DNA of 24,650 bases. Origin: a virus. Each line of letters opens with the position of its first letter. Positions within the stretch are counted from its first letter, which is position 1. The notes under the pieces are model-generated. The model was not told where the DNA came from. It worked only from the letters and a program-made list of their open reading frames with translations, and made no database searches. The stretch lies in the UHGV virus genome UHGV-0200293; one strand, 5' to 3'. Below, piece by piece: positions 22,265-24,295 of the stretch. The translations under genes were made by a program, and so were the position numbers.

Positions 22265-23550
22265 TGAAATACCCGACTGGTGTTGAACTGCATAACGGAA
22301 AAATCAGGATCACATTTATCTATCGCGGCATTCGTTGCCGCGAAGTTCTCCAGGGTTGGGTTGTCAACAGTAGCAACATTAAAAAAGCGGGCAATCTGCG
22401 CGCAGCAATTGTGAGTGAGATACAACTCGGTAAGTTCGACTACGCAGATCGTTTCCCGGAATCAAAAGCTCTTAAGAAATTTTCGTCCACAAAACGGATC
22501 TCCACATTCAAAGAACTGAGTGATTTTTTTACAGATACAAAGTCACTGGAGGTATCTGAAGCCACTTTGCTATCCATCACATCAGTCGTTAACACCCTGA
22601 AACGAGTCGTGGGCGAGAACACACGGCTGGTTGATATTCAGCACGCAGATATTCTGAATTACCGCAAAGAACTCCTGACCGGGGAAGTTTTCAACCCTTC
22701 AATACCAAACCGCATCAAAAATGGGCGCGCGCCCTCAACAGTCAATAAACAGATGGCTGTTTTATCAGAAATGCTGAAGCTTGCAAACCGAAGCCAGTTT
22801 ATATTGCATGCTCCTTATGAAGGAGTGTCGCGACTCAAGTTATCTAAAAATGATCCCGACCCACTTTTACTTCATGAGTACCAGGCACTGATAGCCGCCC
22901 TTCCCCGTAGCCAGGCATTAATCATCATTATTGCGGTACATACAGGGATGAGGCCGGGCGAGATATGCGCACTGGCATGGGAAGATATTGATTTGGTAAA
23001 AGGTGAAATCCACGTATCCAGAAATTTGACGAACAAGCAAGTATTTGTACCCCCTAAAACAGATGCCGGGATAAGGACGATAACGTTGCTGAAACCTGCT
23101 CATGATGCTCTGCTGGAGCAATACGAAATCACTGGGAACAGTCCAAAACAGGAAATTCAGTTTCATCATCGTGAGATCGGAAAAACTGAGCAGCAATATC
23201 TTCGCTTCGTTTTTTCACCGACAACATACTCGTCAACGAAAGGCGGTTACTTTTCCAAGGACTCGATTTCGTATGGCTGGAAACGTGGGACTAAACTTTC
23301 AGGTATACGTGAGCGCAATCCATATCAGTCGCGTCACACATATGCCTGCTGGACGCTGATGGCCGGAGCGACCCCGTCGTTCATTGCCAGCCAGATGGGA
23401 CATGAAGATGCGCGGATGGTATACGAGGTTTACTCCAAGTGGATTGGTGATATGAACCAGGATCAGGTCAACATGCTGAACAATCAGATGCCGACAGCAC
23501 TGCCTCCAGGACGCCCCCAAGGGCGAGGGAGTATGAAAAAAGTCATTTAA
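22264..23550 (+). CDS. int: Tyrosine integrase with an N-terminal Arm DNA-binding domain
   Basis: The N-terminus reads GVELHNGKIRITFIYRGIRCREVL...FDYADRFPES (arm-binding domain). The catalytic region has ...HTGMRPGEICALAWEDID... and ...SRHTYACW...GHED..MVYEVY (R..HxxR..Y). Confidence 0.9.
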   Translation: MKYPTGVELHNGKIRITFIYRGIRCREVLQGWVVNSSNIKKAGNLRAAIVSEIQLGKFDYADRFPESKALKKFSSTKRISTFKELSDFFTDTKSLEVSEATLLSITSVVNTLKRVVGENTRLVDIQHADILNYRKELLTGEVFNPSIPNRIKNGRAPSTVNKQMAVLSEMLKLANRSQFILHAPYEGVSRLKLSKNDPDPLLLHEYQALIAALPRSQALIIIIAVHTGMRPGEICALAWEDIDLVKGEIHVSRNLTNKQVFVPPKTDAGIRTITLLKPAHDALLEQYEITGNSPKQEIQFHHREIGKTEQQYLRFVFSPTTYSSTKGGYFSKDSISYGWKRGTKLSGIRERNPYQSRHTYACWTLMAGATPSFIASQMGHEDARMVYEVYSKWIGDMNQDQVNMLNNQMPTALPPGRPQGRGSMKKVI

Positions 23551-23551
23551 T

Positions 23552-23580
23552 TTCATAGCGCTGGTTTCAATCCACATAAT
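23552..23580 (+). promoter_or_regulatory. Candidate hybrid sigma70 promoter for phoP at the prophage/chromosome junction (TTCATA-N17-CATAAT)
   Basis: The CATAAT at 23575-23580 lies within CCACATAATC, which matches my recollection of the E. coli phoP P1 -10 region. The upstream sequence differs. No tandem (T/G)GTTTA-N5-(T/G)GTTTA PhoP box is visible. Confidence 0.35.
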
Positions 23581-23620
23581 CAGCGTTAAACTACTAATAC
23601 CGTTAATTTAGGGAGAAAAG

Positions 23621-24295
23621 ATGATGCGCGTACTGGTTGTCGAAGATAATGCCTTATTACGCCACCACCTGAAGGTTCAATTACAGGATTTGGGGCACCA
23701 GGTTGATGACGCAGAAGATGCAAAGGAAGCCGATTATTATCTTAACGAGCATCTGCCGGACATCGCCATCGTCGATTTAGGCCTCCCGGATGAAGACGGG
23801 CTTTCGCTGATCCGCCGCTGGCGCAGCAATGACGTTTCCCTTCCTGTTCTGGTATTAACCGCCCGTGAGGGCTGGCAGGATAAAGTGGAAGTGCTGAGCG
23901 CCGGCGCCGACGACTACGTGACAAAACCGTTTCATATTGAAGAAGTGGTCGCGCGTATGCAGGCGTTAATGCGCCGCAACAGCGGCCTGGCCTCGCAGGT
24001 TATCTCTATTCCGCCTTTTCAGGTGGATCTCTCCCGCCGTGAATTGTCCGTAAATGATGAAGTGATAAAATTGACGGCGTTTGAATACACCATTATGGAA
24101 ACGCTGATCCGCAATAATGGCAAAGTCGTCAGCAAAGATTCGTTGATGCTACAGCTCTACCCGGATGCGGAACTGCGTGAAAGCCATACCATTGATGTAT
24201 TAATGGGGCGCTTACGCAAAAAAATTCAGGCGCGATATCCTGATGATGTGATTACCACCGTCCGTGGTCAGGGATACCTGTTCGAACTGCGCTAA
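23621..24295 (+). CDS. phoP: Response regulator PhoP (OmpR family)
   Basis: It is near-identical, by eye, to Salmonella/E. coli PhoP along its whole length. SD is GGGAGA. An alternative start lies at 23624. Confidence 0.97.

Follow-up and report, generated by a model that had tools for sequence, protein, structure and literature searches.

Introduction

The Rac prophage of Escherichia coli K-12 is characterized by the IntR integrase, the YdaQ excisionase and a recET early region, and its integration site is the ttcA (ydaO) gene. In e14, in phage 21 (icd) and in the phages that integrate into tRNA genes, the phage attachment site (attP) carries a replacement for the end of the gene which is displaced by the integration. 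Yet another type is regulatory, or "active", lysogeny, which is known from the comK prophage of Listeria and from SpyCIM1, which is found upstream of mutL in Streptococcus pyogenes. Here we analyze a prophage end in front of the phoP gene in the UHGV virus genome UHGV-0200293, a stretch of 24,650 nucleotides (nt) which in the following is called the window. From alignments it is near certain that positions 23551-23620 of the window are the right junction (attR) of a ~24-kb defective Rac-like prophage of Citrobacter koseri. Phage DNA has taken the place of the upstream half of the phoP promoter, and the binding site for the PhoP activator, the PhoP box, is found at the other prophage end (attL).

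PhoPQ controls Mg2+ homeostasis, modification of lipid A and lipopolysaccharide, resistance to antimicrobial peptides, and virulence in enterobacteria, and C. koseri is a pathogen which causes neonatal meningitis. Both the surge on activation and the dynamic range of the PhoPQ response owe their shape to its positive autoregulation, and in E. coli the phoPQ operon has a constitutive promoter, P2, upstream of the PhoP-dependent promoter P1 (PMC3750022). The phoP promoter of Salmonella has architecture I, with the box placed 12 nt from the -10 hexamer and a leader of 34 nt, and a fragment from -52 to +5 is enough for Mg2+-regulated transcription (PMC3335776).

The window resembles Rac in its integrase, which has the Arm-DNA-bind_2 and Phage_integrase domains and ~50% amino acid identity, in the DUF1233 excisionase gene directly upstream of it, and in the RecE, RecT, YdaE, YdaS and YdaT-type neighbours which are carried by intact relatives (L003, L006, and L007). 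Unlike in Rac, the target here is the -10 and start site of the phoP promoter. As with icd and the tRNA genes the target is short and conserved across genera, and a phage arm substitutes for the host sequence which is removed, so that the target can keep working. In those systems, however, it is the 3' end of a coding sequence or tRNA gene which is replaced, whereas here a promoter has its upstream half replaced, with the activator site and the -35, and the substitute is not equivalent, a PhoP box being traded for a plain -35-like hexamer. With the comK prophage and SpyCIM1 the element has in common that it lies between a host gene and its expression signals and alters the regulation while it is integrated. 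In these two cases the gene is off and is turned on by excision, whereas phoPQ probably stays on and loses its feedback input; moreover, the window prophage is defective and several of its relatives are without int, so the state is fixed and there is no switch. From all these systems the phoP site differs, as judged from the two junctions, in that the displaced activator-binding half is left facing phage cargo. We found no description of a prophage attachment site at or upstream of phoP in the literature that we searched, and this absence is limited to that literature.

The phoP promoter with and without the prophage

A first reading of this DNA, made from its letters and open reading frames (the sequence-only reading), suggested that the int end of a prophage sits on the phoP promoter and that the native upstream region has been replaced. 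For comparison we used long contigs encoding a PhoP protein identical to that of the window, of which 19 could be classified as empty or occupied. About 11 of these have an empty site, i.e., purB directly before phoP, and about 8 are occupied. One of the PhoP-identical genomes with an empty site is AP023452, C. koseri MPUCK001 (PMC7729419), and C. koseri is also the name attached to the closest integrase clusters.

In the empty sites L001, L008, and L010 phoP lies directly 3' of purB, and the order is purB, the PhoP box GGTTTAcgaaaTGTTTA, 12 nt, CATAAT, leader and phoP, with the intergenic sequence ending in ...CCGGTTTACGAAATGTTTATCCCCGCCGCAACATAATCAGCGTTAAACTACTAATACCGTTAATTTAGGGAGAAAAGATGATG. 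The box is a direct repeat, GGTTTA-N5-TGTTTA, and ends 12 nt before the -10 hexamer. With its direct-repeat box, the 12-nt distance, CATAAT and a short leader the empty-site promoter is thus like the native phoPQ promoter of Salmonella and E. coli (class II, architecture I). The native bases at the -35 position fit the consensus at only 1-3 of 6 positions, as expected of an activator-dependent promoter. In E. coli purB is also directly upstream of phoP and the layout is the same, but the sequence after the -10, CATAATCGCGTTACACTA, is different. Both the neighbourhood of purB and phoP and the tandem box of the autoregulated promoter had been described in the sequence-only reading, and both are seen here.

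A pattern scan of metagenomes showed that the native box, the 12 nt and CAYAATCAGCGTTAAACTA are kept in 53 loci with more than 30 different leaders. The part of the promoter used as att core (see below) is thus an island of strict conservation, and this probably accounts for its being a phage target. It should be noted that in an empty site (L001 9830-9915) purB is followed by two GC-rich palindromes of the REP type (GCCGGATAGCGATGCTAACGCATCTTATCCGGC and GCCGGAGCCTCATCCCCGGC), which are placed before the PhoP box and in the lysogens remain with attL.

The window is identical to the empty-site C. koseri loci from 23574 on and unrelated to them upstream of this position. The homology to E. coli starts at 23572, where CCACATAATC begins. 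The earlier impression that the sequence is native-like from about 23572 is therefore correct, with the refinement that, according to the alignments, the -10 lies in the core and so belongs to a shared sequence and is not purely native. The att core ACATAATCAGCGTTA, which reads ACA(T/C)AATCAGCGTTA, is 15 bp long (23574-23588, + strand) and is common to attB, attL, and attR; in the lineage of the window the identity runs on to 23592 (AACT), which makes 19 bp. It is present at attR in the window and at attL in L011, L012, L002, and L004, and each of the empty sites L001, L008, and L010 has it once. The core includes the -10 hexamer CATAAT (23575-23580), and if the 34-nt leader of Salmonella phoP is used as a guide, transcription would start near 23587, so that the core would cover approximately -14 to +1 or +2 of P1.

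Upstream of the core is the phage-derived, non-coding P arm of attR (23551-23573, + strand), which has no counterpart in the empty sites and is kept in every lysogen examined. Downstream follows the native phoP 5' leader (23589-23620, + strand), which is 100% identical to the empty-site C. koseri loci and has a Shine-Dalgarno sequence, AGGGAG, at 23610-23615. The int gene ends 23 nt before the core, and phoP starts with ATGATG. The list of open reading frames and the sequence agree with the positions given earlier for the int stop (23550), for the two phoP ATG codons (23621 and 23624), for a lone GGTTTC (23563-23568) and for the beginning of CCACATAATC (23572). The comparison with the prophage-free purB-phoP region, which had been suggested as a check, defined the core as above, and it bears out that phage DNA has replaced the native upstream region, since the uninterrupted relatives diverge upstream of 23574 and do not share sequence with the window up to 23551. 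Chance is far from accounting for the junction, since dozens of independent assemblies share this break point and there are empty sites within the species. An assembly chimera was considered and is ruled out by the identical junctions in many independent assemblies.

The other end of the prophage was recovered from loci with both ends of related elements and from loci found via the gtrB gene of the window. At this junction attL reads purB ... GGTTTACGAAATGTTTATCCCCGCCGCAACA(T/C)AATCAGCGTTA and then continues into phage DNA. L011 is 100% identical to window positions 1-11227 and has purB and attL upstream, and the attR of L012 is identical to that of the window; therefore the attL of these two loci is that of the window itself. 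The attL copy of the core is 451 nt to the left of position 1, which gives a prophage of ~24.0 kb. At attL in L011 and L012 there is a perfect PhoP box, GGTTTACGAAATGTTTA (L012 9251-9267), so that the direct repeat and the displaced box, which the sequence-only reading had proposed to look for there, are both present. No PhoP box with three or fewer mismatches was found on either strand in 23444-23620, which agrees with the earlier statement that phoP has no tandem box upstream, and a scan allowing 3 mismatches found none within 130 nt upstream of the window phoP. Nor is a box recreated at attR by the att duplication, which has 15 bp, or 19 bp in the lineage of the window. In other words, the architecture I feature, (T/G)GTTTA-N5-(T/G)GTTTA at 12 nt from the -10, is present in the empty sites and at attL, where the native layout is kept to about +1, and it is absent before the window phoP, where the box and everything upstream of it are missing. 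Between the lone GGTTTC and the -10 there are 6 nt. A cryptic box TTCATA-N5-GGTTTC was rejected, both for this distance of 6 nt and because its upstream half matches at 3 of 6 positions only. Inside int there is a PhoP-box-like sequence with one mismatch, TGTTTATTGACTGTTGA (22735-22751, - strand), which is also present in L012 (19632-19648); it may be due to chance, as the window has 69 matches with three or fewer mismatches against 54 expected.

Among the lysogens the third base of the -10 hexamer (23577; CATAAT or CACAAT) varies between the two junctions, in every combination of attL and attR. The window lineage has C at attL and T at attR (L012 9281), L002 has T at attL and C at attR, and L004 has C at both ends. 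All C. koseri empty sites that we saw have T at this position, and CACAAT is native in at least one other taxon. The pattern is that expected of a mismatch within the strand-exchange overlap, and we infer from it that the crossover takes place inside the -10 hexamer.

The sequence in front of phoP in the lysogen

The P arm contains the hexamer TTCATA (23552-23557) exactly 17 nt before CATAAT (23575-23580), as pointed out in the sequence-only reading. In a consensus scan this was the only sigma-70-like site in 23200-23700. It scores 4/6 for TTCATA and 5/6 for CATAAT with a 17-bp spacing, which is a consensus match only. The same spacing of -35 and -10 is found in 41 of 41 junctions from IMG/VR. 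Measured against the consensus the phage arm gives a better -35 than the native host sequence does, 4/6 against 1-3/6.

No terminator-like site was found between the int stop and phoP, and int is co-oriented with phoP, both as stated before. The phage arm is joined to the core by an imperfect inverted repeat of 11 bp, TAGCGCTGGTT / AATCAGCGTTA, whose arms are 11 nt apart (23556-23588); the counterpart of the inverted-repeat arm in L004 is TAACGCTGGTT, with a 10/11 match, and a 146-nt region with the repeat folds at a z-score of -2.8. The repeat may be a pair of core-type binding sites for the integrase or a hairpin met by read-through transcription. It was also considered as a terminator for int, and this was rejected because it is not followed by a U-run.

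A model for the control of phoPQ in the lysogen

In the model an integrase of the Rac/IntR type recombines at the 15-bp core, which in C. koseri consists of the -10 hexamer and the probable start of the PhoP-activated phoPQ promoter, P1, and through the integration two promoters trade their upstream halves. The PhoP box of the host goes to attL beside purB, where it faces gtrABC, and by analogy with E. coli the constitutive P2 would be displaced to attL together with the box and would face the same cargo. The phoPQ operon keeps only its -10, start site and leader, and gains the phage P arm with TTCATA at the optimal 17-bp spacing. Without direct activation by phosphorylated PhoP (PhoP-P) the positive feedback would be lost, and phoPQ would be expressed at a fixed level from a hybrid sigma-70 promoter, part phage and part host, to which read-through from xis-int may add. 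The intact PhoP-dependent promoter at attL would fire into the prophage in response to PhoP-P. The attL promoter is native from beyond -52 to about +1, and because it thus keeps nearly all of the fragment which is sufficient in Salmonella it should still respond to PhoP-P.

We give the model as a whole, i.e., attR, core and displaced box, lost autoregulation, a hybrid promoter or read-through in front of phoPQ and a PhoP-driven promoter in front of the cargo, a probability of roughly 0.7. Its structural part (attR, core and displaced box) is near certain from the alignments. That phoPQ has lost direct autoregulation by PhoP is quite probable, and for the hybrid promoter as the main driver of phoPQ we see an even chance. 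Control of the phage cargo by PhoP is suggested by the layout of attL. An indirect point in favour of the model is that phoP and phoQ are intact also where int has decayed (L002, L004, L005, and L009).

Some observations weigh against the model. The promoter scan found 1 site where shuffled sequences gave an expectation of 0.9, so the -35-like hexamer taken alone is not beyond chance, and a 4/6 match at the -35 is expected by chance at about 1 in 10 such positions. In most Enterobacter junctions in IMG/VR the hexamer is TTCATG (3/6), and many C. koseri lysogens have CACAAT, not CATAAT, at attR. The conservation of TTCATA could reflect binding of the integrase instead of promoter function. A contiguous attP (P arm, core and P' arm) was not found in scans of IMG/VR, and attP is thus only reconstructed from attL and attR; neither did an attL with the P' arm of C. 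koseri give a match in IMG/VR, and looser patterns gave attR and attL only.

It could also be that phoPQ is transcribed mainly by read-through from the + strand prophage genes (TolA-like, DUF4060, xis and int), following phage early-left transcription. We find this possible, though on the unlikely side, and it is compatible with the model, not exclusive of it. The orientation of int fits read-through, xis and int overlap, there is no terminator-like site from 23247 to phoP, the prophage is defective and without an immunity region or a visible repressor gene, and a promoter-like site (20342-20369) is located upstream of the block of + strand genes. On the other hand promoter-like sites in 19700-23650 are no commoner than in shuffles (6 found against 5.4 expected), the imperfect 11-bp hairpin at 23556-23588 lies in the path, and in intact relatives the operon should be repressed in the lysogen. 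The opposite outcome, that integration leaves phoPQ essentially promoterless, with lysogens being PhoPQ knock-downs and the -35-like hexamer irrelevant, is in our opinion improbable. The 3/6 hexamer of the Enterobacter junctions, the CACAAT of many C. koseri lysogens and a consensus match which is not above chance are all in its favour. It is at variance with the full length of phoP and phoQ and the identity of PhoP in the four lineages with a decayed int and a fixed insertion, with the presence of the junction across several species, and with CACAAT being the native -10 in the empty site of at least one taxon.

That there is no regulatory change at all, either because the sequence upstream of 23572 is native or because the att duplication restores a working PhoP box, is extremely improbable. 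The GGTTTC at 23563-23568 resembles half of a PhoP box, but the empty sites are wholly different upstream of 23574, and the 130 nt before phoP contain no box with three or fewer mismatches, the perfect one being found at attL. The alignments already refute this reading. The half-site is moreover 6 nt from the -10, whereas a full box in Salmonella was reported to be active at distances of 12, 23, and 33 nt, 7 nt also being among those tested (PMC3335776).

The model can be extended by supposing that attP is itself a promoter, its P arm providing a -35-like hexamer and its core a -10, with the cargo beyond the P' arm. In the reconstructed attP these three would be in one line, so that the integration may be viewed as two promoters trading what lies upstream in each. 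The phage would in this case mimic the -10 and start of the host phoP P1, and the integration would be a deliberate half-promoter exchange, a strategy conserved in Citrobacter and Enterobacter which places cargo under PhoP and takes from phoPQ its positive feedback, setting it at a level defined by the phage. We put this forward only tentatively and regard it as rather doubtful. If it were true the cargo at attL (gtrABC in the window, in relatives an acyltransferase or SRAP/YedK-like genes) would answer to low Mg2+, antimicrobial peptides and acid pH, and the exchange could affect the dynamics of the virulence circuit and polymyxin tolerance or heteroresistance.

If the model itself is right, one and the same species has a master regulator that is wired differently in lysogens than in non-lysogens, and natural "feedback-deleted" strains are at hand for testing the purpose of the autoregulation. 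Genes for O-antigen glucosylation would have been placed behind a PhoP-dependent promoter. Such prophages may be an overlooked source of strain variation in PhoPQ-dependent traits, e.g., polymyxin tolerance.

Distribution of the attachment site

Among the sampled contigs a mobile element is present at the phoP site in a sizeable minority of C. koseri, and elements are also found there in C. freundii and Enterobacter genomes; each such element physically removes the autoregulatory site from phoPQ. In C. koseri there are fuller versions (L003, L006, and L007), which have CI-like genes besides the Rac-type genes named above, and smaller remnants (L002, L004, L005, and L009), in which int is truncated or missing. 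In all occupied C. koseri loci, these remnants included, phoP and phoQ are full length, and the PhoP protein sequence is the same in lysogens and non-lysogens. A PhoQ of 487 amino acids is called 3' of phoP in all PhoP-identical loci which reach that far.

The nearest integrases from sequenced phages are those of Escherichia phage PHB10 (51%) and Rac (IntR, ~50% amino acid identity). In the collection of sequenced phages there was no near DNA relative of the int end, and only a RecT fragment in Gifsy-like phages matched. Integrases with 87-88% identity are found in C. freundii, C. farmeri, many Enterobacter species and Lelliottia, and the four of these that we looked up (P0016, P0033, P0020 and relatives) are all located ~70 nt upstream of phoP-phoQ. 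The phage arm is the same in these relatives, ATTTAATTTCAT(A/G)(G/A)CGCTG(G/C)TT(T/C)CAA.... All 41 IMG/VR proviruses which match arm plus core (41/41) are attR junctions beside phoP, with leaders typical of several host species. On this distribution the core of phoP P1 is regularly used for attachment by a family of integrases in both Citrobacter and Enterobacter, and is not the accident of one strain. Among complete E. coli genomes none has the int end beside phoP.

A second type of P' arm (AACTACGAAACTGATTTT... or AACTATAAAATTGGTTTT...) follows the PhoP box and core in L127, L128, L119, L126 and one metagenome locus, and therefore more than one phage lineage uses this attachment site. In Leclercia adecarboxylata (L020) an integrase with 74% identity is found at another locus, beside genes for a 4HBT thioesterase and an FAD-oxidase; it has the same xis and YdfE-like neighbours and marks where the target specificity changes within the family.

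Downstream of attL there is a conserved P' arm of ~190 nt, which has a promoter-like site of its own, and then variable cargo. In the window this is gtrABC, the O-antigen glucosylation cargo beside attL, which has the same orientation as the displaced PhoP-box promoter; gtrA follows attL after ~340 nt, a stretch in which there is no terminator-like site. In L002 the cargo is an acyltransferase gene and a DUF6418 gene. Several IMG/VR proviruses have SRAP/YedK-like genes after attL, and others have tail-fibre genes on the opposite strand. The SRAP/YedK-like gene lies 250-1600 nt after attL in L122, L124, L125, L126, and L119 (PF02586 was confirmed for L124, E = 6e-51) and is in most of them the first co-oriented gene, while in L119 another open reading frame comes before it. 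In L002 the remnant between purB and phoP is only 4.4 kb (5527-10000), and its Acyl_transf_3, DUF6418, xis and truncated int genes are all co-oriented, so that transcripts begun at the PhoP-box promoter of attL could in principle still reach phoPQ.

The genes of the prophage

The prophage body is that of a defective lambdoid phage with a Rac-like early region and covers positions 1-23573 of the window, its left end (attL) lying 451 nt before position 1, as mentioned above. It carries gtrABC, head genes, portal, terminase and lysis genes, a split Q, NinG, DUF1367, TolA-like and DUF4060 genes, xis and int; there are no immunity, replication or tail-assembly genes among the prophage genes in the window. 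The C-terminal part of gtrA, gtrB and a gtrC-like gene are at 5-2914 (+ strand; Pfam GtrA_DPMS_TM and Glycos_transf_2). The gtrC-like gene (1214-2914) abuts the gene for a major tail protein (2941-3750, - strand), which matches only positions 1-178 of a profile of 254. The tail module seems to be deleted, and genes for tape measure and tail fibre are absent from the window. The antiterminator gene Q is split into two open reading frames, matching profile positions 1-100 and 102-218 (16580-17263, - strand), and is probably a pseudogene, and NinG (17397-17885) is without the N-terminal 39 positions of its profile.

The only prophage genes which look intact are xis and int. The xis-like gene (DUF1233; 22049-22264, + strand; PF06806, E = 5e-23) overlaps the start of int by 1 nt. 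The int gene (22264-23550, + strand, with TAA at 23548-23550) encodes a tyrosine integrase of 428 amino acids, in which Pfam finds PF12167 (Arm-DNA-bind_2) at residues 4-68 and the catalytic PF00589 (Phage_integrase) at residues 204-391. On the host side phoP (23621-24295, + strand) encodes a response regulator with the receiver (Response_reg) and winged-helix (Trans_reg_C) domains, and the 5' part of phoQ (24295-24650, + strand; annotated as phoQ in the E. coli match) overlaps the phoP stop by 1 nt.

A gene for a protein with a TolA C-terminal domain is located at 20406-20810 (+ strand), and L009 carries two such genes; the protein might interfere with the entry of Tol-dependent phages or colicins.

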